Shown: positions 2,944 to 58,739 of the stretch, in pieces
Numbering within the stretch: position 1 is the first letter of the stretch
Layout: each line of letters opens with the position of its first letter
Source: an uncultured Rickettsiales bacterium
GTDB lineage: Bacteria > Pseudomonadota > Alphaproteobacteria > Rickettsiales > UBA1997
Direction of reading: 5' to 3'
Length of the DNA: 64,000 bases
NCBI GenBank assembly: GCA_934747265.1
Contig: CAKVGI010000006.1
Coordinates: 10,606-74,605 of the forward strand
Program-made: the position numbers and the translations under genes
Notes under the pieces: generated by a model
What the model was told of the DNA's origin: nothing
Databases searched by the model: none
The model's input: only the letters and a program-made list of their open reading frames with translations

Positions 2944-5250
2944 TTATCTACTAATTCCACCGTTTCCTTTGGAATTACCACTATTTGTCTGACTACTATT
3001 TATTTGACTACTCTTTATATTTTCATTATTGCTATTTTCTATATTTCTCATATCTTGAATAATATGTTGTGTTGCACGTTTTTCTTTAATAGTTTCAGTA
3101 AAAGATTTAAGTGATTGGGAAATTGTTTCTTGTATTTCTTGGTTTAAAGGATTTTCTTTTTTAAGCGAATTTTCATTATTAACTACACTGTTTTCATTTA
3201 CTTTATTATTTTCTCTTTCTTGTTTTAAATCTTTTTTGCAATTTTGTAATTCTAAATATGTTAAGCTATGTTCTCTAAAATCTTTAGCCATATCAACTTG
3301 TTGCTCTTCTGGAAATTTTTTTACTATATTCATTACAACACCCTCAAATTCTTTATCATTCATCGATTTTGTTATGGGTATTCCTTGTTTTATCATTTCT
3401 TTTTCCAATAATTGTTGGCAATCTTGACCATATCTATCTTTAAATTCCTGCGCTTCTTGCTTAAAATCTTTTTCTGCATTTTGTACTTTTGTTGATAGAT
3501 AAAATTCATATCCAATATTTTCACCATCTTTTTTTGCCCATTCATTATAATGTTTTAAGTCTCTTAAATCTTCTTGCCCTGCCCTAATATCTCCAACATT
3601 TATTCCTGCTTTTATTTTTTCATCTTGTGTTAGACTATCCCAATTTTTATTTTGGCTTTTTAGAATTTCTCTTGCTGGATATTTTATACCATTATCTCTT
3701 AATTCTTTGTATTGCGATGATAAAGTTATTGGATTTTCATAGCCCAAATTTGATAAATTATTTTCAGCATTTTTAATATTATCTATTTTCTCCTTAGTTT
3801 CTTCTTTTAAATCATTATTAATTTTATTGATATTTGTAGATATATTTTTATTTTCATCTTGTGATATTAACATATCGCTAACTCTATCTCTAACATCATT
3901 AAAAACCAAATTGCCAATTTCTGTCATTAAAGATGACTCCATAGCTATATTAGAAAGATTGAGACTTGCTGGTATATTTTGCATATCAGAATTAAGTCCT
4001 AATTTTTCAATTCTAGTATTTATATTCTCTTGCTCTTTTGAATTTATATTATTTATTTCGTTTCTTGTATTTTCTTCTTGTGGTTTCTTATCATTACTTT
4101 GAGTTTCTTGTTCTTTTTCAAATATTCTTTCTATATCTCTTTGGATACCTCTATTTTTATCAGCTTTACTCCTCTTTTGTCTTCTTTGCTGTACCAATTT
4201 TCTTTTATAACTTATACCACCAAAAACTTTTCCATTATTAATACTTATTCCTTTCTCAAAATTAGTCCCTTTACCAGATGTCAATGCATTATTTTTTATA
4301 TTACTTAATAATAAATCTGATGGTGATTTGAAAATATTACTAATTGTTCTTGTGGTTTTTGCAATAAAATTACCAATAAGTTTATTAATTTTGTTAATTG
4401 AATCTATTGGAATCATAAAACCTTTTATACAAAGATATAAAATCCCATTAATAAACAATACTGAATATAAAAGATTAGAAAATAAAAATCTTTTAAAGAA
4501 TCCGCCACTATTTTTATTAAAATTAATTCTTTTTTTAATATTTTTTGAAAAAATAATTAAAGTTTTTTCGCAACGTTTAAATAATCCCAATAAAACTTTA
4601 ATTATAATACTTATTTGCCATATAAAAAACAATACAAGTAATAAAGCAAGCCCCATCATTCCGCTTATAAGCGCCGGCAACATGATAAATAATAAAATTA
4701 AAAATTTTTCAATAATTGAAGCTTTTTTTATAAATTGAAAAGAATTAATAAAATTACCAAAACCTTTTATTGATTTTTGATATTCTTCTTTATATAAATC
4801 AGAAACCTCACGAAAAAATGGCTTTTTTTCAATTATTTCAAGCATTTGTTCTTCTTTGATTGTATTTTGCTGATTTTTTAAGTTATTAAATACTTTTTCT
4901 TTCGTTTCATCTACTTCTTCGTCTTCATCCTCTAAGCAATTTTTTCTAAATTCTTCTTCTATAAATTTTTCATCTTCTGCAAATTGTCTTTTTTCTTCTT
5001 TTTTGTTATTATCTCTTTTTTTATTAAAAAAGTCATTAATTTTAGATTGAATTTTATTTTTTAACTCCTCACTTGTTATTTTTGTTGGAGATTTTTTTAC
5101 TTCAACCAATACCTCACTTGTAATTTTTTTAACTATTTCATTTTTATCAATATTTTCCATTAAAACAACAAATAATTGCCATATATGAATATAATAATAC
5201 TTCTTAATAGAAAAACAAGTAAATATTAATTGCTTTTTTAAAAAAATCAT
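2944..5250 (-). CDS. hypothetical large charged protein with central TM segments
   Basis: 768-aa ORF. K/E/N-rich with coiled-coil-like regions and two or three hydrophobic helices around residues 180-290. No recognisable domain. An alternative start MENIDKNE lies at 5160. Plus-strand ORFs inside it are low-complexity shadows. Confidence 0.5.
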   Translation of the reverse strand: MIFLKKQLIFTCFSIKKYYYIHIWQLFVVLMENIDKNEIVKKITSEVLVEVKKSPTKITSEELKNKIQSKINDFFNKKRDNNKKEEKRQFAEDEKFIEEEFRKNCLEDEDEEVDETKEKVFNNLKNQQNTIKEEQMLEIIEKKPFFREVSDLYKEEYQKSIKGFGNFINSFQFIKKASIIEKFLILLFIMLPALISGMMGLALLLVLFFIWQISIIIKVLLGLFKRCEKTLIIFSKNIKKRINFNKNSGGFFKRFLFSNLLYSVLFINGILYLCIKGFMIPIDSINKINKLIGNFIAKTTRTISNIFKSPSDLLLSNIKNNALTSGKGTNFEKGISINNGKVFGGISYKRKLVQQRRQKRSKADKNRGIQRDIERIFEKEQETQSNDKKPQEENTRNEINNINSKEQENINTRIEKLGLNSDMQNIPASLNLSNIAMESSLMTEIGNLVFNDVRDRVSDMLISQDENKNISTNINKINNDLKEETKEKIDNIKNAENNLSNLGYENPITLSSQYKELRDNGIKYPAREILKSQNKNWDSLTQDEKIKAGINVGDIRAGQEDLRDLKHYNEWAKKDGENIGYEFYLSTKVQNAEKDFKQEAQEFKDRYGQDCQQLLEKEMIKQGIPITKSMNDKEFEGVVMNIVKKFPEEQQVDMAKDFREHSLTYLELQNCKKDLKQERENNKVNENSVVNNENSLKKENPLNQEIQETISQSLKSFTETIKEKRATQHIIQDMRNIENSNNENIKSSQINSSQTNSGNSKGNGGISR

Positions 5251-14476: not shown

Positions 14477-15382
14477 ATGCAAAATTTAATTAGTGATTTT
14501 TTATTATATTTAAGCGTAGAAAAAGGAGACTCAAAAAATACAATAATCTCTTATAGAAACGATTTAAGCGATTTTTTATTTTTTGTTGAAAATAAGCTAA
14601 AAATTGAACCAACGCTAGAAAATCTAGCTAAATTAAAACATAGCGATTTTAGATCTTGGTTAAGTTATAAAAAAGCAAAAAATTACGAAAATTCCTCAAT
14701 GTCAAGAGAATTATCGGCCGTAAAAAGCTTTTATAAATATTTATCTAAGGTAAAAAAGAAAAACAATACAATTATTGGTATTATGAAAAATCCAAAGGTA
14801 AAAAAATCAATTCCTCGCGCAATAGATAAAGTGAATATAGATAAAATAATGGATTGTATTTATGATATGCATAAAGATAATTGGCAAGCCGAAAGAGACA
14901 TAGCGATTTGTACCTTAATATACGGGTGTGGTCTTAGAATTTCGGAAGCTTTTAATTTAACTAGAAGGCAATTTTTTCAAAATAAAGATTCCATAACAAT
15001 AATTGGTAAAGGAAATAAAATGAGAAATTTACCATTATTGCCAATTATTATCAATCGTGTAAATATTTACATAAAGGATTGTCCTTATACAATTATGCCA
15101 GATGACTATTTATTTAAATCTGCAAGAGGATTGAAATATTCAACTACATTATTTCAAAAATTAATACAAAATATAAGAACAATGCTTGATTTATCTAACG
15201 AAATTACACCACATGCTTTAAGGCATTCATTTGCAACACATCTCTTAGAAAACGGTGCTGATTTAAGAAGTATACAAGAATTATTAGGACATAAAAGTCT
15301 ATCAACAACGCAAATATACACAAAAATTGATAAGAATAGATTGTTAAAAGATTACAACAAATTCCATCCAAGAAATAATTGA
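14477..15382 (+). CDS. tyrosine recombinase XerC/XerD family
   Basis: GLRISEAFNL and HALRHSFATHLLENGADLRSIQELLGHKSLSTTQIYT (R..HxxR..Y catalytic signature). Confidence 0.9.
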   Translation: MQNLISDFLLYLSVEKGDSKNTIISYRNDLSDFLFFVENKLKIEPTLENLAKLKHSDFRSWLSYKKAKNYENSSMSRELSAVKSFYKYLSKVKKKNNTIIGIMKNPKVKKSIPRAIDKVNIDKIMDCIYDMHKDNWQAERDIAICTLIYGCGLRISEAFNLTRRQFFQNKDSITIIGKGNKMRNLPLLPIIINRVNIYIKDCPYTIMPDDYLFKSARGLKYSTTLFQKLIQNIRTMLDLSNEITPHALRHSFATHLLENGADLRSIQELLGHKSLSTTQIYTKIDKNRLLKDYNKFHPRNN

Positions 15383-17872: not shown

Positions 17873-18058
17873 ATATATTGTTTATTAGCTTATATATTTG
17901 TATTTATTTTATATTATATTTGTTTATTGGATTTGTCAATTTAATTTCCAGTCAGTTATATATTTTTTTTACACTTTCCAATAACAGAAGATTGTAAGAG
18001 TTTACAGGAATGATAAAAAGAAATGTTCTTTAAAAAACAGTAATACTCAAAATAACTC

Positions 18059-18087
18059 TTGACAGATTAAAAAACATTTATTACTAT
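18059..18087 (+). promoter_or_regulatory. sigma70-like promoter
   Basis: TTGACA, a 17-nt spacer, then TACTAT, about 45 nt upstream of ATG 18131. Confidence 0.45.
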
Positions 18088-18130
18088 ACTTTTGGTGGTA
18101 TTTATTATAAATAATATAATGGTAGTTGTT

Positions 18131-18322
18131 ATGTCAAAAAATACAATATATGCTATTGCTATGATTTTACTCATTATTGGTGGTTTAAATTGGGGACTTA
18201 TTGGTTTATTGAATTTCAACTTAGTATCATTCTGTTTTGGTGCTACAATATTTTCAAAAATTATTTATATTTTAGTTGGCGCTTCCGCTATTTTGGTTGC
18301 TATAACAAAATTTAAAAAATAG
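18131..18322 (+). CDS. DUF378 family small membrane protein
   Basis: IAMILLIIGGLNWGLIGLLNFNLV...IIYILVGASAI matches the DUF378 pattern. Start placed at MSKN. Confidence 0.75.
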   Translation: MSKNTIYAIAMILLIIGGLNWGLIGLLNFNLVSFCFGATIFSKIIYILVGASAILVAITKFKK

Positions 18323-18409
18323 TATAAATATTAATTTTATTGTTTATTTGCTTGATTTTTTATTTTTAAATTCAATAATGATATTGTTTTATTAATAAAA
18401 AATTTTGCA

Positions 18410-19909
18410 ATGGAAAATATAGTTGATTATACAAAAGTTTCTAGCACGGCAGACGAACAAAAACTTAATAAATTAAAAGCATTAATGGATGCTGGTATTG
18501 AGCCATATCCACATAATTATAAGAAAGATATAAATTCAAAAAAACTAAAAGAAACTTATGATTATTTGCAAGCTGGCGAAAAGTTAGAAGATAAAGTATA
18601 TAAAATAGCTGGCAGATTAATGCTTAGAAGAGATATGGGTAAAGCCATGTTTCTCGATGTTTATGATGAAGATGGAAAAATACAAATTTATTTATCCAAA
18701 CCAGAATTAAGTGAAACTGATCAAAAATTATTACCATTGCTTGATATTGGTGATTTTATAGGTATTGAAGGATATGTTTTTAGAACTCATAAAGGCGAAT
18801 TAAGTCTACATTGCAAAAGCGTAAAATTATTATCAAAATCAATAGCAAATTTACCAGAAAAATTTCATGGATTGACTGATACAGAGTTAAAATATAGGCA
18901 AAGATTCATTGATTTGGCTATGGATTTAGAAACTCGGGAAAATTTTAAAAAGAGAAGTTTAATTATTTCAACTATTAGGCAATTTTTGGATGAAAAAGGA
19001 TTTTTAGAAGTTGAAACGCCTATTCTACAACCAATTTATGGTGGCGCAAGCGCTGAACCATTTACAACTCATCATAATGCATTAGATATGACATTATATT
19101 TAAGAATAAGTGTTGAAACGTATTTAAAAAGACTTATTGTTGGCGGTTATGAAAAAGTTTATGAAATTGGCAGAAATTTCAGAAATGAAGGTATAGATAC
19201 AACTCACAATCCAGAGTTTACAATGATTGAGTGGTATGAAGCTTACAGCGATTACAATGATCAGATGAAAAATATAGAAGAACTACTTGAAACAATTGTA
19301 AAGAAAGTAAATAATGGATCAACAGTAATTAAATACAAAGATATGGAGGTTGATTTTAAGGCTCCATTTAAAAGATTAAGCGTTTATGACGGTTTGAGAG
19401 AGTATGCAAAAATAGATCCAGAAATAATAACCAAAAACGATTTAATTAAAGAAATACGAAAATATGGAGAAGAAATAGAAGAAAAGAAAAGCAAGGGTGA
19501 ATTATTACTGCAATTATTTGAAATAACATGCGAACAGCATTTAATTCAACCAACATTTGTAATAGACTATCCATTAGAATCTTCACCTCTAACAAAAACA
19601 CACAGAAAAAATAGTGAATTGGTAGAAAGATTTGAATTATTTGCTGGATGTGTTGAGCTTGCAAATTCTTATTCTGAATTAAATGATCCAATAGATCAAT
19701 ATAATAGATTAAAAAAACAAGAGGAAAATAGAGGATTTGATGCAGAAGCAATGCCTATGGATGAAAATTTTGTCCATGCATTAGAAATCGGTATGCCACC
19801 ATTGGGAGGCGTTGGAATTGGTATTGATAGATTGGTAATGTTTATGACATCAACACCAAATATTAAAGACGTATTATTTTTCCCAACTTTAAAAAAAATA
19901 AATAAATAA
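18410..19909 (+). CDS. lysS: lysine--tRNA ligase, class II
   Basis: OB-fold N-terminus plus class II motifs FRNEGIDTTHNPEFT, ELANSYSELNDP and GGVGIGIDRL. Confidence 0.95.
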   Translation: MENIVDYTKVSSTADEQKLNKLKALMDAGIEPYPHNYKKDINSKKLKETYDYLQAGEKLEDKVYKIAGRLMLRRDMGKAMFLDVYDEDGKIQIYLSKPELSETDQKLLPLLDIGDFIGIEGYVFRTHKGELSLHCKSVKLLSKSIANLPEKFHGLTDTELKYRQRFIDLAMDLETRENFKKRSLIISTIRQFLDEKGFLEVETPILQPIYGGASAEPFTTHHNALDMTLYLRISVETYLKRLIVGGYEKVYEIGRNFRNEGIDTTHNPEFTMIEWYEAYSDYNDQMKNIEELLETIVKKVNNGSTVIKYKDMEVDFKAPFKRLSVYDGLREYAKIDPEIITKNDLIKEIRKYGEEIEEKKSKGELLLQLFEITCEQHLIQPTFVIDYPLESSPLTKTHRKNSELVERFELFAGCVELANSYSELNDPIDQYNRLKKQEENRGFDAEAMPMDENFVHALEIGMPPLGGVGIGIDRLVMFMTSTPNIKDVLFFPTLKKINK

Positions 19910-20180
19910 TGATTGGGCGTAAAGCCCTTTCATTTTATTCATTAACTATTTTATTTATATTATACAATTTATTTTTATAATGGAAAAATCTAAAAATAGT
20001 ATTTATAATACAAAAAACATTAGTATTAAAATTCTTACTTTATTTTATATATTATATTTATATTAAAGATTACAATGTATTAAATGCCAAAATAACAACA
20101 CAATATTTTCAATAATATAATTTAATGACATAATAAACAGATAGACACCACTCAATAAAAAATAAAGATTTCTAAGACAC

Positions 20181-20256
20181 TGGTGAGTCCGGCGGGAATC
20201 GAACCCGCGACAACATGATTAAAAGTCATGTGCTCTACCTACTGAGCTACGAACTC
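20181..20256 (-). tRNA. tRNA-Lys (anticodon UUU)
   Basis: A 76-nt cloverleaf folded by hand. Acceptor GAGTTCG/CGGACTC, anticodon arm CATGA-CTTTTAA-TCATG, T arm GCGGG-TTCGATT-CCCGC, encoded CCA. Confidence 0.9.
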
Positions 20257-20534
20257 AAAAAGAATATACATCTTCAATCAAACAATACAGATATCAGATT
20301 GCATATTTAAAATGATAAGTACTAATTATTTTAAAGTCAAGATTTTTATTTACAAAAAACAAAAATTTTTATAAATAATACTGCCTATTATATATTTTTC
20401 TAAATTAAATCAAAAAAATATTTATTGTCAAATCTCTTTTATTTTTTCTGTTTGGTTTGTTTTCCCGTTGTCTTTATTGTAAATCCTAATCAACTCTTTT
20501 TAAATAATAATAAAATTAAAAATATATCCTCTTT

Positions 20535-20988
20535 GTTCATTTTAATAAGAGAGAGTTAATGAAGTCATTACTTCTCTCTATCACTCCTTATAGAAGAGTT
20601 GATGCTAAATAACCTCTCTCCTACCACATTGTAAAGAGAAAATCAGTCGTAGAACACCATCTTCTTGCCCCACTTTGTAATGGGTCGGTCGTAGAACATC
20701 TTTTCTTTCGTCCCCCTTTGTAAAGGGGAAGCTGGCGAAGTCAATACCTACCCCGCCCCCTTCGTAAGGTGGGAGTCAGTCGTAGAGCGCTTCTCATCTG
20801 CCCTCCTTTGTAAGGTGGAGCTGATGTAGTCAATGTATCCCCTCCCTGCCCTCCTTCGTAAGGGGGGGCTGATGTAGTCAATGTATCCCCTCCCTGCCCT
20901 CCTTCGTAAGGGGGGAGCTGATGTAGTCAATGTATCCCCTCCCCGCCCCCCTGATAAGGGGGGAGTCAGTCGTAGACTGACAGGGGGG
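20535..20988 (+). repeat. composite element A, long-unit arm
   Basis: About 10 tandem units of 44-49 nt. Near-identical units start at 20820, 20868 and 20917 (GCTGATGTAGTCAATGTATCCCCTCCCTG plus hairpin CCCTCCTTCGTAAGGGGG). Units become AT-rich toward 20535. The arm ends in hairpin AGTCAGTCGTAGACTGAC plus GGGGGGTTGATA. Confidence 0.85.
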
Positions 20989-21204
20989 TTGATAACATTC
21001 ATTTTGTTTTATAATAAAACAAATGAATAATTGAAAATTAAAAATGAAAATTAAAAATGAAAATTGAAAATGAATATAAAGTTTGGAATCTTAAATTAAG
21101 AATTAAGAATTAAGAATAATAAAGTATATTACATATTAAACAATGTTATTTATTTTATTTATAATATAAATAATAATTGTAATTTAATGTAATCAGATAA
21201 TTTA
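20989..21204 (+). repeat. composite element A, AT-rich core
   Basis: AT palindrome CATTTTGTTTTATAATAAAACAAATG, a ~13-nt repeat (GAAAATTAAAAAT)n, a 7-nt repeat (GAATTAA)3, and the conserved end TGTAATTTAATGTAATCAGATAATTTAAA. Confidence 0.8.
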
Positions 21205-21540
21205 AACCCCCCTTACCCCCCTTATCAGGGGGGGGGATGAGAGGAGAAACTTTAAGAGCTATAATTTATGAAAGCCCCCTTACCCCCCTTATCAGGGGGG
21301 ATGAGAGGACTTTATCAGGGGGGGATGGAGGGTATCCTTATCAAGGGTGATAGAATTGCACCCCTTAACAGAGGCATCCTTATCAGGAGGTGGGAGGAAT
21401 ATCTCTTATCAGGGAGGACAGAGAGTATCCTTATCATGGTAGGGGTCTTAGAGAAACTTAGCATAGGGGAAATATAGAGACACCCCTTATCATGGTGGAT
21501 GAAGGAGTACACATTAGCATAAAATGATGTAGGGTATCAC
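21205..21540 (+). repeat. composite element A, short-unit arm
   Basis: CCCCCCTTACCCCCCTTATCAGGGGGGG, duplicated at ~21206 and ~21274. About 10 units of ~25 nt follow (CTTATCAGGGGGGATGGAGGGTATC) and decay outward. Confidence 0.85.
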
Positions 21541-27069: not shown

Positions 27070-27385
27070 AATTGACTAAAATATTTTTTATCACTCTTTG
27101 TAAGGTGATTGATAACCATTTATTTGTTTTATTATAAAATAAAACAAATAAATAATTAAAATTGAAAATATAAAGTTTAAATTTAAAATTAATAATTTAG
27201 AATTAAGAATAATAATATATTAAATATAATTTAAAAACAATTAATATTTAACTCCTTCACCTTTCTTATCAGAAGTGGTGATGTGGGTTCTTTATTAACA
27301 AGAGGGAATAGAGAGTATCCCTAATATGCCCTTGATATAGTGGATAAAGGTTATTCTTAGTGTAGGAAATAAGGAAAATATATTT
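27070..27385 (+). repeat. composite element B (strongly AT-decayed copy, same orientation as A)
   Basis: Retains ATTGAC..CTCTTTGTAAGGTGATTGATAAC, the AT palindrome TTTGTTTTATTATAAAATAAAACAAA, ATTGAAAAT, GAATTAAGAAT, and about four decayed CTTATCAG-type units. Confidence 0.65.
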
Positions 27386-27635: not shown

Positions 27636-28247
27636 TTATTTGCAATAATTTTTTAATATAAAATCAATTCCAGATTTTTCATTTTGCAATTTTGCTTTAA
27701 GTGAATTAAAATATTTAGCTGAATAGATTGGATCTTCTGAATTAAATAATGCAGAATGCAATAGTTTAAAGTCATCAAAATGACAATGAACATGCAAAGG
27801 TAAACAATTATCTTTTGTTGTTTTGCCTCCACGTGCGAATGGTTGTATATGATGTCCAGTTAAAGTATGAATGTTTGTAATATCTAGTGGTTTAAAACAC
27901 ATTGGACATATATAATTAAATTCTTCACAGCTTCTTAATATTTGATTTTTACTGAAACATCTAGCATTTATATTTTCTGTAAAATTAGATAAAAGTTGAG
28001 AATAACATCTATGTTTTGTAGCAATTTTTTTAATATGTTCGCTTGGAACATTGAAATATTTTACCATAAATTTTAATGATACAGAATATTTTATTAAAAA
28101 TAAAATTTCCTTTTCGTATTCGTATTCAGTTGTATCCTTGCAATTATTTTCACATTTTTGTAAGAAATAATCCTTAACCTGTTCTATATTTCTTATTACT
28201 CGTTCTTTTTGTTCTTCTTTTAGAAATTTTACGGTTAAATCTCTCAT
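27636..28247 (-). CDS. HNH endonuclease domain protein
   Basis: CPMCFKPL...TGHHIQPFARGGKTTKDNCLPLHVHCH is a CxxC...HH..P..GG...N...L..CH HNH core. The N-terminal ~120 aa are unassigned. Confidence 0.7.
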   Translation of the reverse strand: MRDLTVKFLKEEQKERVIRNIEQVKDYFLQKCENNCKDTTEYEYEKEILFLIKYSVSLKFMVKYFNVPSEHIKKIATKHRCYSQLLSNFTENINARCFSKNQILRSCEEFNYICPMCFKPLDITNIHTLTGHHIQPFARGGKTTKDNCLPLHVHCHFDDFKLLHSALFNSEDPIYSAKYFNSLKAKLQNEKSGIDFILKNYCK

Positions 28248-29317: not shown

Positions 29318-29935
29318 CATTATTTTTTCCTCACTGATAAGGATATATTCCCTCTATTCCATTTCCTGTTAATGGATACCCTCCAATCCCCCCTGATAAG
29401 GGGGGTAAGGGGGGTTTTAAATTACCTGATTACATTAAATTACATTTATTTATATCATAATTGTTTAATATGCAATATATTTATTATTTTTTGTTATATT
29501 TTATTATTCTTTGTTCTTTATTTTAAATTATTAATTTTAAATTTAATATACTTGATTTAATGTTTTTAATTTTAAATCTTAAATCCTTAATTTTATATTT
29601 TTTAATTTTTAATTTTCAATTATCCATTTGTTTTATTATAAAACAAATACCATCAACCCCCCTGTCAGTCTACGACTGACTCCCCCCTTATCAGGGGGGG
29701 CGGGGAGGGGATACATTGACTTCGTCAGCTCCCCCCTTACGAAGGGGGGCGAAGAGAGAGAATATTCTACGATTAACTTCCCTCTTACAAGGAGGCAAAG
29801 ATGGAATATATTGACTTTGTTAGCCTTTCCCCTTACAAAATTTGGTAAAGAAGGGGTATTCCACGACTAGTTTTTTCCTTACAAAGTGGAATAAGGAAAG
29901 GTTCTTTACGTTAACTTCATTTTATTATTGACTTC
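29318..29935 (-). repeat. composite element C (inverted relative to A)
   Basis: Short-unit arm 29318-29416 (..CCCCCCTGATAAGGGGGGTAAGGGGGG), core 29417-29655 with conserved ends, long-unit arm 29656-29935 (CCCCCCTGTCAGTCTACGACTGAC..GGGGATACATTGACTTCGTCAGC..) decaying outward. Confidence 0.85.
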
Positions 29936-58468: not shown

Positions 58469-58703
58469 GCATCTTTGCCCGTAAGTCATCCAATTAGAAT
58501 GCAAGCATTCCATATTGTCTGACATTTAGGGTTCGTTGTTCCTCTGGCAAACTGCGGGCATAAGTTGTAAACCCAACATTTAGCCCTTGTTGCTCCTTCG
58601 GCAAACTGCGGGCATAAGTTGTCAAACTTTGATGCAAGCATCAAGTTTTCCAACGTTTAGCCCTTGTTGTTCCTTCGACAAACTTCACCTGTAAGTCGTC
58701 AAA
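58469..58703 (-). repeat. hairpin-repeat block HR1 (about 3.5 tandem units of ~50-77 nt)
   Basis: Repeated (A)CATTTAGCCCTTGTTGCTCCTTCGGCAAACTGCGGGCATAAGTTGTCAAA, with or without hairpin TTGATGCAAGCATCAA or GAATGCAAGCATTC. Relatively G/C-rich. Abuts the distal end of element E. Confidence 0.7.
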
Positions 58704-58739
58704 TAAAAATAAGCAAACTTCTTTTTACAACTAAACAAT

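Follow-up and report, generated by a model that had tools for sequence, protein, structure and literature searches.

A dispersed composite hairpin repeat with an AT-rich core in a Rickettsiales-labelled bacterium, with end modules that recur around DUF559 genes of other phyla

Introduction

REP elements are imperfect palindromes of 20-40 nt with a conserved 5' GTAG, and they occur as inverted doublets. In REPIN/RAYT systems, short GC-rich hairpins lie inverted around a spacer and are dispersed between genes, more complex clusters and arrays exist, and the RAYT gene, which encodes a Y1/HUH transposase, is itself flanked by REPs; the pairs are mostly vertically inherited (PMC3337134, PMC6006769). 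The repeat described here, from a 64-kb stretch of DNA of an uncultured Rickettsiales-labelled bacterium (the window), is built and dispersed in a similar way, and in other phyla DUF559 genes are flanked by inverted modules as RAYT genes are by REPs. It differs in that the gene is a Vsr-fold PD-(D/E)XK endonuclease, that the modules follow a grammar of two C-runs, a loop and a G-run, that the window copies carry an AT core of 200-430 nt and long decaying arrays, and that the modules are common to many phyla and are frequently embedded in genes in frame. The window does contain inverted hairpin doublets, with GTAG in the loop of the second hairpin (H2) and not at the foot of the main one.

Mitochondria offer a second comparison. 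In Allomyces, mitochondrial hairpin elements are linked with a mobile endonuclease ORF, and Paquin et al. reportedly described mitochondrial GC clusters and double-hairpin elements in 2000. The GC clusters, ori/rep and hairpin elements of yeast, fungal and sponge mitochondria are, like the present repeat, islands of GC-rich palindromes in AT-rich genomes that turn over rapidly between strains, merge and shuffle, and act as recombination hotspots (PMC4478555, PMC2800124). An earlier note on this DNA compared the repeat with the yeast clusters, which is a fair functional analogy. Here, however, the host is a bacterial chromosome, the sequences show no similarity, the window plan is defined (inverted ends, conserved core, ordered decaying arms) and the candidate enzyme belongs to a specific family.

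Three further systems share single traits with the repeat. Like classical MITEs it has a short non-coding centre between inverted repeats (of ~29 nt here), folds back, and is polymorphic for presence and absence, and its insertion may have duplicated a short target (TTGTCAA/TTATCAA at one copy); unlike them it has no known parent IS with a DDE transposase, the endonuclease encoded by its coding relative has a fold with no known role in DNA transposition, and its ends are reiterated outward in tandem. Rickettsia palindromic elements (RPEs) share the Rickettsiales-labelled host and, with our modules in other phyla only, the in-frame position in genes; they are set apart by their description as 100-150-bp elements lacking C6/G6 hairpins, arrays and an AT core, and the window copies are exclusively intergenic. 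Homing endonuclease genes, whether free-standing or intron-borne, are likewise small nuclease genes of the same superfamily that behave as selfish cassettes (the Vsr-like homing endonuclease I-Bth0305I, PDB 3R3P, is grouped with DUF559; PMC3424549), with an inferred spread by copy-to-copy conversion. Such genes normally lack hairpin inverted repeats and have no non-coding derivatives, and the activity of DUF559 itself is putative.

Results

A composite repeat at seven loci

We found the same composite repeat at seven loci of the window, four of them complete (A to D), one represented by its right arm (E) and two by left arms (F and G). The earlier note had placed at least seven copies in 64 kb, and its account of B to G is confirmed.

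About 20396-21536, + strand: copy A, full extent of the insertion when compared with the empty allele in strain L081
About 27070-27385, + strand: copy B, complete but decayed; one left unit, palindrome, short core, right arm
29318-29935, - strand: copy C, complete; 5-7 left units, H2, 247-nt core, right module and 3-4 right units
46533-46760, + strand: copy E, right module and ~7 right-arm units only, starting 34 nt past the stop codon of ORF 44313-46499
58740-59636, - strand: copy D, complete; ~4 left units, degenerate H2, core of ~430 nt, then a TTG-variant right module with 8 right units
61895-62180, + strand: copy F, decayed left arm without core; 5-6 units, ending in CCCCCCACCCCCCTTACCAGG
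63712-64000, - strand: copy G, left-arm units joined to the right-module-like ACCCCCTTACCCCCCCTTATCA, cut by the window end
58480-58720 and 62340-62480: a second repeat family, above 55% GC over 40 nt

All copies are intergenic (A between divergent genes; B, C and D between co-oriented genes), and their description as a non-coding, dispersed composite repeat is supported. They are not the only G/C-rich islands of this 25% GC genome, as had been supposed: tRNAs, a few coding stretches and the second repeat family also exceed 55% GC over 40 nt. The motif CTTATCAGGGG matches 17 times in the window with at most one mismatch, compared to 0.34 expected from dinucleotide shuffles, and CCTTYGTAAGGRG 15 times with at most two mismatches, compared to 1.9. 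Since 7.5 kb of sequence is 100% identical across three independent assemblies, an assembly artefact is excluded. The seven loci form a real family of dispersed, non-coding and fast-changing composite repeats, probably selfish.

An Rfam search, advised in the earlier note, left the element without a family: Rfam 15 matched four tRNAs only over the window and nothing in the modules at 18 loci of other phyla, which rules out a known RNA family. The composite repeat is nowhere described in the literature that we searched (motif strings, cyanobacterial small dispersed repeats). A metagenome scan with the junction-hairpin pattern returned a single 1.1-kb contig and a scan of viral contigs nothing; a 25-mer scan of genome contigs returned other phyla, the host species being absent from the matches.

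Inverted terminal modules and decaying arms

The working unit of each copy consists of a left double-hairpin module, a dyad-symmetric AT core and a right hairpin module. Copy A (+ strand throughout) is laid out as follows.

20396-20667: outer left arm, units heavily AT-decayed, with ttgtaa loop and gaagtca second-hairpin remnants
20668-20945: left arm, six recognisable double-hairpin units of 43-48 nt
20936-20996: left inner module, the left terminal inverted repeat
20965-20981: junction hairpin H2, GTCAGTCGTAGACTGAC
20983-20996: GGGGGGTTGATAAC, directly after the junction hairpin
About 20997-21204: AT core, 14% GC
21205-21236: right inner module, the right terminal inverted repeat, AACCCCCCTTACCCCCCTTATCAGGGGGGG
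21237-21536: right arm, with a second right module at 21275-21300 and then ~25-nt units

The left inner module runs CCCCTCCCCG, H1 CCCCCCTGATAAGGGGGG (20946-20963), H2 and the segment after it; the right one is spelled AACCCCCC-TTA-CCCCCC-TTATCA-GGGGGGG. The two (left CCCCCCTGATAAGGGGGG…GGGGGGTT with H2 between, right AACCCCCCTTACCCCCCTTATCAGGGGGG) are ~29-nt inverted terminal repeats that enclose the AT core. The centre of the element is therefore MITE-like, with the arrays outside it, contrary to the view that terminal inverted repeats are missing. As single-stranded DNA, the modules pair across the core (-61 kcal/mol, z = -8.6), and in the left one a CCCC/GGGG stem closes a pair of hairpins (-19.2 kcal/mol, z = -4.0). 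Strain L099 has a copy without H2, and its left module, CCCCCCTGATAAGGGGGGTAAGGGGGGTT, equals the right module read as the reverse complement, with no difference. Copies A, C and D share the right module AACCCCCCTT[A/G]CCCCCCTTATCAGGGGGG and the left CCCCCCTGATAAGGGGGG…GGGGGGTT, both composed of a C-run, 3 nt, a C-run, a 6-nt loop and a G-run; the right module of copy B is degenerate (ctccttcacctttcttatcagaagtgg). In the window copies, such a module and its reverse complement thus stand inverted around a cargo.

Each left unit combines H1 (CCCYCC-TTYGTAA-GGGGGG) with AGCTGATGTAGTCAAT or AGTCAGTCGTAGA, decayed forms of H2. The former had been taken for a spacer; it is a decayed copy of the second hairpin, which reads GCTGAC-GAA-GTCAGC in strain L083, and this makes every left unit a double hairpin. 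A CRISPR array is excluded, as the earlier note had held, because the 'spacers' are themselves repeats, namely decayed hairpins; the window also has no cas genes.

The H1-type hairpins of copy A start at 20668, 20711, 20755, 20801, 20849, 20897 and 20945, a spacing of 43-48 nt, with more decayed units further left. The three core-proximal left units are 91-100% alike and identity drops outward; Tandem Repeats Finder recognises the youngest 3.5 left units only (20798-20965, period 48, 91% matches). Relative to the empty allele the left arm begins at ~20396, about 140 nt before the start at 20535 given previously. Its outer part is orthologous to the outer arm of L083 (window 18042-20574 corresponds to L083 6993-9448). 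The right arm has about nine units (CTTATCA-GGGGGG-AT-GGAGGG-TATC), at least eight of them traceable as far as ~21510, that also decay outward, those from 21485 on being orthologous to L083. Such reiterated, outward-decaying end modules are found in the window arms and also at loci L036, L050, L014, L023 and L028.

The core of copy A consists of an AT palindrome (20997-21028), AT-rich microsatellites and a conserved 3' end, tgtaatttaatgtaatcagataatttaaa. A per-copy stem search finds the palindrome in 10 of 12 copies although its letters differ between them: it is maintained via paired changes.

Turnover between closely related strains

Comparison of orthologous regions, which the earlier note had recommended, reveals differences at the same locus, in both presence and unit number, among strains that are 94-99% identical. 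L081 has a clean empty site at the copy A locus with intact neighbouring genes. This is the only such site known, and a secondary deletion may have produced it, given that L083, a more distant strain, carries an element there. In L081 and L082 the empty site reads ...tttttctaa followed directly by ttgtcaataactt. The BLAST breakpoints of copy A fall at window 20425 and 21563, and its edges carry TTGTCAA near the left and TTATCAA at the right, a possible 7-bp target duplication for which the left junction requires an extra 21-nt indel.

At the same locus, L083 has two left hairpins and one right unit compared to eight and nine in the window, and the outer arms are shared. At the 3' end, its core resembles window copies D and B at 93-96% and copy A, which occupies that very position, at only 78%, in low-complexity AT-rich alignments whose baseline is already ~70-80%. 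Strain L091 lacks two left units (a 96-nt indel) with no difference on the right side, carries an 18-nt patch that turns TTCGTAA into TGATAA, and varies in core microsatellite copy number.

The other loci change in similar ways. For example, the copy B locus of L083 has four left units and H2 with the right half missing, and L081 loses synteny there within a hairpin, directly after atcactcttt. At the copy D locus, L099 has two elements in tandem, the second beginning directly after the right module of the first, and its copy F allele runs on into right-module units repeated three times in tandem, followed by a right arm and another element. For L100-L102, homology sets in at 59636, where the left arm of copy D has its outer edge, and L103 diverges from the window at 61801, the copy F locus.

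Synteny breaks at element edges in L081, L100-L102 and L103. The copies are recombination and rearrangement hotspots that break metagenome assemblies. Because their surroundings are unrelated and strains differ in them, the reading as local segmental duplications alone, named in the earlier note as an outcome that would undo its proposal, does not apply. Elements are absent from LysRS-homologue loci at 92%, 84% and 68% identity, where synteny is not conserved.

The same modules around DUF559 genes in other phyla

The earlier note implied an archetype specific to this lineage. The 25-mer scan instead found the right inner module identical to a 25-29-mer at 71 genome loci of unrelated phyla (Poribacteria, Entotheonella, CPR bacteria, Firmicutes, Bacteroidota, deltaproteobacteria and cyanobacteria). 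At around 25 of these 71 loci, an intact ORF for a DUF559 (Vsr-fold) endonuclease abuts the motif (tblastn E-values 1e-55 to 1e-95; Pfam PF04480, E = 7e-32). DUF559 is very common among bacterial domains and its structure has been solved (3HRL), but to our knowledge it has no known function.

The cassettes consist of agtCCCCCTGATAAGGGGGATTTAGGGGGTT, an antisense DUF559 gene and AACCCCCCTTGCCCCCCTTATCAGGGGGG, which matches the window order of left module, core and right module. Their ends in L004-L058 are identical to the window right module, and several carry end arrays: 47-nt units in L036, 101-nt end stubs in L014, and ~31-nt units on both sides in inverted orientation in L050. Homology between window and cassettes is confined to the ~29-nt end modules, the AT core having no counterpart there. 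Distant DUF559 genes, only 35-45% identical, have flanks that keep the same grammar in different letters; they occur in cultured cyanobacteria, Sphingomonas, Deinococcus, Neisseria and Azospirillum. DUF559 genes are enriched among genes flanked by inverted repeats (PMC9881135). The association of hairpin ends with DUF559 is nowhere described in the literature on DUF559 and mobility that we searched.

Modules also lie in frame within housekeeping genes of other phyla, as in a CysRS-like gene (L062) and a DNA methylase (L008), where the module reads PPDKGGKGG…PPYQGG. In four phyla, orthologous methylase genes carry a DUF559 cassette at one and the same linker; instead of instances of homing, these methylase-borne cassettes could be functional domain insertions that travel with their host genes. 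Compact doublets of right module, spacer and left module are found in other phyla too, and one of them (L070) folds at -31.9 kcal/mol (z = -6.8). The window ends are members of an undescribed superfamily of C-run/loop/G-run hairpin modules that is widely distributed among bacteria.

Search for an enzyme

In the window, tblastn and domain scans of the ORFs found no DUF559, transposase or nuclease gene attached to the modules, and a six-frame profile search of 362 kb of the host species and relatives found no DUF559. The cargo of the window copies is an AT-rich non-coding core instead of the DUF559 (PF04480) ORF that defines the autonomous form, so the copies can only be non-autonomous relatives. 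The core is not a decayed DUF559 gene, since it gives no tblastn or HMM signal. With no nuclease gene found in the host lineage, we infer the engine from other phyla.

An HNH gene beside copy B (27636-28247) was rejected as a candidate: it gives only a generic HNH match and is conserved in place across strains, it has no PHROG or NCBIfam match, and nothing ties it to the elements. Y1_Tnp/RAYT (PF01797) and other transposases are absent from the scanned window ORFs and from the Pfam lists of ~25 related loci, which cover a fraction of the genome. An integron attC array, dismissed already in the earlier note, is excluded by the lack of intI and of gene cassettes between units; the sole tyrosine recombinase is XerC/D-like.

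14477-15382: XerC/D-like tyrosine recombinase gene, in conserved synteny

Cas9 is present elsewhere in a relative.

Discussion

We consider it somewhat probable that the repeat is a non-autonomous member of a DUF559-associated hairpin-module superfamily that spreads by break-induced copying, with arms that are fossil ends. A site-specific nuclease would nick or cut at or near the hairpin modules; by analogy it would be of the DUF559 type, encoded elsewhere in the genome or formerly present, and the likely recognition feature would be the recurring TTRTCA loop/target motif. Another copy of the element would serve as the template for repair of the break, in the manner of homing or ectopic gene conversion, and this step would carry the centre to new TTRTCA sites and keep the cores and inner modules of a strain alike. 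The arms would consist of non-functional end modules reiterated through out-of-register repair, slippage or insertion beside an existing end, and their outward decay gradient would arise as unrefreshed units erode under the AT mutation pressure of the genome. Strict nested ('Russian doll') self-insertion predicts equal unit numbers in both arms. It fails because the numbers are unequal (~4 left and 8 right in copy D, 5-7 and 3-4 in copy C), and the change of L091 in two left units only also argues against it.

It is unlikely, though worth weighing, that the copies are relics of an old invasion with no dedicated enzyme today, altered by slippage, hairpin-stimulated deletion and homologous recombination between copies. 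Searches of the window and of 362 kb from the species and its relatives gave no nuclease gene, many of the changes look like slippage or unequal exchange (the 96-nt two-unit indel of L091, the core microsatellites), breakpoints at copies are expected of passive dispersed repeats, and E, F and G are half elements. Nevertheless, GC-rich modules of 29 nt have stayed perfect although the genome is 25% GC and units only a few hundred bases from them have eroded almost to background, which requires recent creation or active refreshment. Also at odds with passive relics are the core types that differ between strains at the same locus and resemble copies elsewhere, and, in L099, the second complete element that follows directly on the right module of the first. 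Close relatives (74-92% protein identity) have no elements in their sequenced stretches, which suggests a recent, strain-level expansion.

We doubt that a Y1/HUH REP-associated transposase or an IS200/IS605-type TnpA moves the elements in the manner of REPINs or PATEs, the DUF559 link being incidental. The inverted hairpin doublets around a spacer resemble those of REPINs (PMC3337134), the REP-typical GTAG occupies the H2 loop of most left units (GTCGTAGAC, GATGTAGTC), and the REPIN-like compact doublets of other phyla fold strongly, as in L070. However, the domains of such enzymes are missing from the window ORFs and the ~25 related loci, a fraction of the genome, and the gene that modules enclose in other phyla is consistently DUF559 across module types, the very relationship of RAYT to REP.

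A host function, as terminators or insulators, nucleoid or replication sites (DnaA-box-like TTATCA arrays) or a source of structured RNA, is very improbable: the architecture is conserved, the core keeps its dyad symmetry through paired changes, ~25-nt-spaced TTATCA units beside an easily melted AT core give an origin-like layout and all copies are intergenic, but they vary in presence and two- to four-fold in unit number among 94-99% identical strains, the strain with the empty site keeps intact neighbouring genes, position and orientation relative to flanking genes are inconsistent, the element sequences that we read contain no hairpin plus T-run (intrinsic terminator), Rfam gives no match, the same modules lie inside coding genes of other phyla, and seven origin-like sites in 64 kb are implausible.

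The consistent association of DUF559 with inverted hairpin modules yields a concrete hypothesis, namely that DUF559 nicks or cuts the hairpins and drives their spread. More tentatively, DUF559 proteins may drive an unrecognised pan-bacterial class of selfish elements in which inverted hairpin modules enclose the nuclease gene and co-vary with the nuclease, with compact double-hairpin derivatives that lie in frame within genes and large AT-core derivatives such as the window copies. If true, the class would be a nuclease-based counterpart of REPIN/RAYT, and DUF559 would gain a function. The window lineage is a natural laboratory for the decay of dead copies, visible in its 25% GC genome: fresh, ageing and fossil ends can be read from the sequence and compared across strains a few per cent apart. 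In this gut-associated, Rickettsiales-labelled lineage, the elements also mark rearrangement breakpoints and the places where metagenome assemblies break. Finally, the GC-rich modules yield spurious 'PPxxGG' peptides in annotated genes of other phyla.

Composite elements and half elements in the window

The window, a stretch of bacterial chromosome with ~25% GC, is densely coding, with four tRNAs and housekeeping genes including those for LysRS, FtsK, FtsA, GreA, RlmE and the DNA polymerase III tau subunit. Identical sequence is found in several gut metagenome assemblies that are independent of one another. Its proteins have their nearest named relatives in MAGs labelled Rickettsiales (60-80% identity), and the lineage is Gram-negative because relatives encode LpxB and LptD.

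An earlier note, made from the sequence alone, had described a composite repeat with two arms of tandem units around an AT-rich core. Direct reading of copy A found every part, and the same plan is seen in copies B, C and D. The partial versions are half elements, consisting of a right arm only (E) or a left arm only (F and G). Allowing up to one mismatch, CTTATCAGGGG has 17 matches in the window compared to 0.34 expected; with at most two mismatches, CCTTYGTAAGGRG has 15 compared to 1.9. Tandem Repeats Finder detects only the youngest units. The finding is thereby confirmed, and it is extended below. Contrary to the earlier claim, the repeats are not the only G/C-rich islands; others are formed by tRNAs, by a few coding stretches and by a second, unrelated repeat family.

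Features of the window (half element G is cut by the window end)
20396-21536, +, copy A
27070-27385, +, copy B
27636-28247, -, HNH protein of 203 aa, generic HNH nuclease motif only
29318-29935, -, copy C
44313-46499, +, lysine/glutamate-rich ORF of 728 aa, ending 34 nt short of the lone right arm E (46533)
46533-46760, +, half element E
58480-58720 and 62340-62480, unrelated second repeat family, ~65-70-nt units with hairpins such as CTTGATGCTTGCATCAAG and ATGATTGTGCAAGCACATCAT
58740-59636, -, copy D
61895-62180, +, half element F
62500-63700 (~1.2 kb), extreme AT-rich tandem repeats, periods of 8, 15, 20, 54 and 176 nt
63712-64000, -, half element G

The second repeat family sits just outside the composites, abutting the right arm of D and starting ~160 nt past F; it is also present in two compared loci (L099 and L104). 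The AT-rich repeats separate the left arms F and G, which face each other, and may represent a massively expanded core or an independent satellite. Since the 728-aa ORF, which has no Pfam match, ends so close to E, the left half of E may have been replaced by it or lost beside it. The HNH gene lies between copies B and C, a position conserved in two strains (L083 and L091). Its protein has no PHROG or NCBIfam match, and no link to the elements could be shown.

Inverted ends and double hairpins

The core is directly flanked by two modules that form an inverted repeat pair. The left one reads CCCCCCTGATAAGGGGGG, an inserted hairpin GTCAGTCGTAGACTGAC, then GGGGGGTT; the right one reads AACCCCCC-TTA-CCCCCC-TTATCA-GGGGGG. 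In another strain, a copy without the inserted hairpin, CCCCCCTGATAAGGGGGGTAAGGGGGGTT, matches the right module exactly in reverse complement. For the inner 316 nt as single-stranded DNA, folding predicts a panhandle with both modules paired (-61 kcal/mol, z = -8.6), and for the left inner module two hairpins inside a closing outer stem.

The apparent spacer of the left unit is a second, decayed hairpin, which is retained in perfect form (GCTGAC-GAA-GTCAGC) in strain L083; left units are therefore double hairpins. The right-arm unit corresponds to the left unit's C-rich half in reverse complement, and the loops TGATAA (left) and TTATCA (right) are exact complements. This points to arms in opposite orientation, a weaker conclusion given that palindromic sequence aligns almost equally well in direct orientation. 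The AT palindrome adjoining the left junction is retained in 10 of 12 copies with differing letters (arm pairs TTCATTTG/CAAATGAA, TCCATTTG/CAAATGGA and TTTATTTG/CAAATAAA, for example), so the symmetry itself is maintained.

Variation between strains

The strains compared share 94-99% gene sequence identity with the window. Locus A is a clean empty site in L081 and L082 (…tttttctaa|ttgtcaataactt). The site is occupied in L083, which has the outermost decayed units in common with the window. The middle is 356 nt compared to 910 nt in the window, with 2 left hairpins instead of 8 and 1 right unit instead of 9, and decayed units give way to perfect ones at an abrupt junction. The 3′ end of its core is 93-96% like copies D and B of the window and 78% like copy A. 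L091, which is 98-99% identical, lacks two left units, differs in microsatellite count and carries an 18-nt patch, CCCCCCTGATAAGGGGGG, where the window has cccccttcgtaaggtggg.

Locus B has one left unit and a right arm in the window compared to four left units and no right half in L083, and synteny with L081 (15400) is lost inside a hairpin. At locus D, L099 has two complete tandem elements, the second starting directly after the right module of the first. In L100-L102 the gene upstream of GreA differs, and homology to the window starts at the outer edge of the left arm. Locus F has more arrays and another element in L099, and L103 (2413) diverges just before the arm.

The elements are dispersed, polymorphic and internally bounded by inverted repeats. 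They change by gain and loss of units, patch conversion, exchange of core type and insertion beside another element. Synteny between strains breaks down precisely at the edges of elements or within a hairpin unit (L081, L100-L102, L103), and the elements appear to mark rearrangement breakpoints. Many contig ends of this species fall at element loci; many RlmE contigs are only 1-3 kb, which suggests that the elements break assemblies too.

The elements are absent from ~20-kb stretches of relatives with 74-92% protein identity. In a sister species (L085-L087, FtsK 74% identical), a type II CRISPR-Cas system (Cas9 of 1180 aa, Cas1, Cas2) lies directly downstream of ftsK, with no hairpin elements in the 10-22 kb seen. 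In another metagenome copy (L080, 700-900, -), a CA-rich array of ccaacaccacac… units, with cccactcttatcagcacac at its end, takes the place of the G-rich right arm after the junction hairpin and core; either the right arm has diverged here or the contig is chimeric.

The modules flank DUF559 genes in other phyla

An exact search for CCCCCTTRCCCCCCTTATCAGGGGG, with one genome per species, found 71 loci from Poribacteria, Entotheonella, Binatia, deltaproteobacteria, Firmicutes UBA4053, Paludibacter, Helicobacteraceae, Nodosilinea and three CPR phyla. At one of them (L008), a DNA methylase ORF carries a 139-codon insert with the motif at one end and its reverse complement at the other. This insert encodes a DUF559 domain (PF04480, E = 7e-32), with 3HRL, a protein of unknown function, as closest solved structure. 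Around 25 of the 71 loci have an intact DUF559 homologue directly abutting the motif, with 60-80% amino-acid identity. In the orientation of the window, the cassette reads agtCCCCCTGATAAGGGGGATTTAGGGGGTT, antisense DUF559 gene, AACCCCCCTTGCCCCCCTTATCAGGGGGG, and the gene takes the exact position of the AT core. The inverted repeats thus relate the window elements to DUF559 cassettes.

Cassettes can also carry end arrays, with 47-nt units in L036 and ~31-nt units with inverted loops on both sides in L050. In Poribacteria (L014, OY764061.1, 4300-7200), four tandem DUF559 gene copies are found with five 5′ stubs and two 3′ stubs. Their 101-nt period comprises the first 22 codons, a right-type hairpin module and flank; this array is a coding equivalent of the window's end arrays. 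Compact doublets of ~70 nt (right module, spacer, left module) fold strongly (L070, z = -6.8) and sit in frame within genes or within other repeats. Where DUF559 genes are only 35-45% identical, the flanking modules keep this same grammar with lineage-specific letters. Such divergent flanked genes are found in Pseudanabaena, Picosynechococcus PCC 7002, Synechocystis B12, Sphingomonas, Deinococcus, Neisseria and Azospirillum.

In four loci (L004, L008, L036 and L050), orthologous DNA methylase genes have the cassette in one and the same linker, following …VVFHDVAFIEV…; the hosts come from four phyla (Bacteroidota, Poribacteria, Gammaproteobacteria, Poriferihabitaceae). This placement fits homing, but co-transfer with the methylase gene would fit as well. 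The L008 cassette is read through in frame as PPDKGGKGGY…NPPRPPYQGG. On cyanobacterial plasmids, DUF559 genes adjoin DUF1156 or BREX PglX methylase genes.

In a published survey of inverted repeats, 'DUF559 domain-containing protein' is one of the gene families with the strongest enrichment of such repeats in their flanks, a result that the survey leaves uninterpreted (PMC9881135). We found no published description of the association between hairpin modules and DUF559 in the literature searched. What is new is less the local composite than the apparently undescribed superfamily of DUF559-tied hairpin modules that it reveals.

Possible mechanism and relation to known systems

A strictly nested insertion model is ruled out by the unequal unit counts of the arms. 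We propose that a nuclease would act at the modules and that the breaks would be repaired from other copies. Such repair would refresh the centre and leave the outer end copies to decay under AT pressure. TTRTCA is a candidate for the motif recognised or targeted; every right unit begins with it, and it recurs in the loops and, as TTGTCAA, at the single empty site. Neither the window nor 362 kb of related sequence yielded a nuclease gene tied to the modules.

We rate the elements as hairpin-type selfish repeats; that they represent a new class of nuclease-driven element is possible but somewhat doubtful. REPIN/RAYT works most like this system, with a different enzyme family, and the element is not a member. 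The analogy to the mobile GC clusters of yeast mitochondria proved apt: they are closest in behaviour (rapid turnover, merger, shuffling, GC islands in AT-rich DNA; PMC4478555), again without membership. As the earlier note argued, the element is neither a CRISPR nor an attC array; nor does it belong to an Rfam family. The note also set aside classical MITEs; a non-coding unit with bounding inverted repeats is loosely a MITE, but no parent IS is known.

Finally, single right-type modules were seen inside two apparently intact genes: a cysteinyl-tRNA-synthetase-like gene of a Parcubacteria MAG (L062, ~3365-3390) and a membrane-protein gene of a gammaproteobacterial MAG (L029, ~1140-1165). Their location inside coding sequences is reminiscent of Rickettsia palindromic elements.
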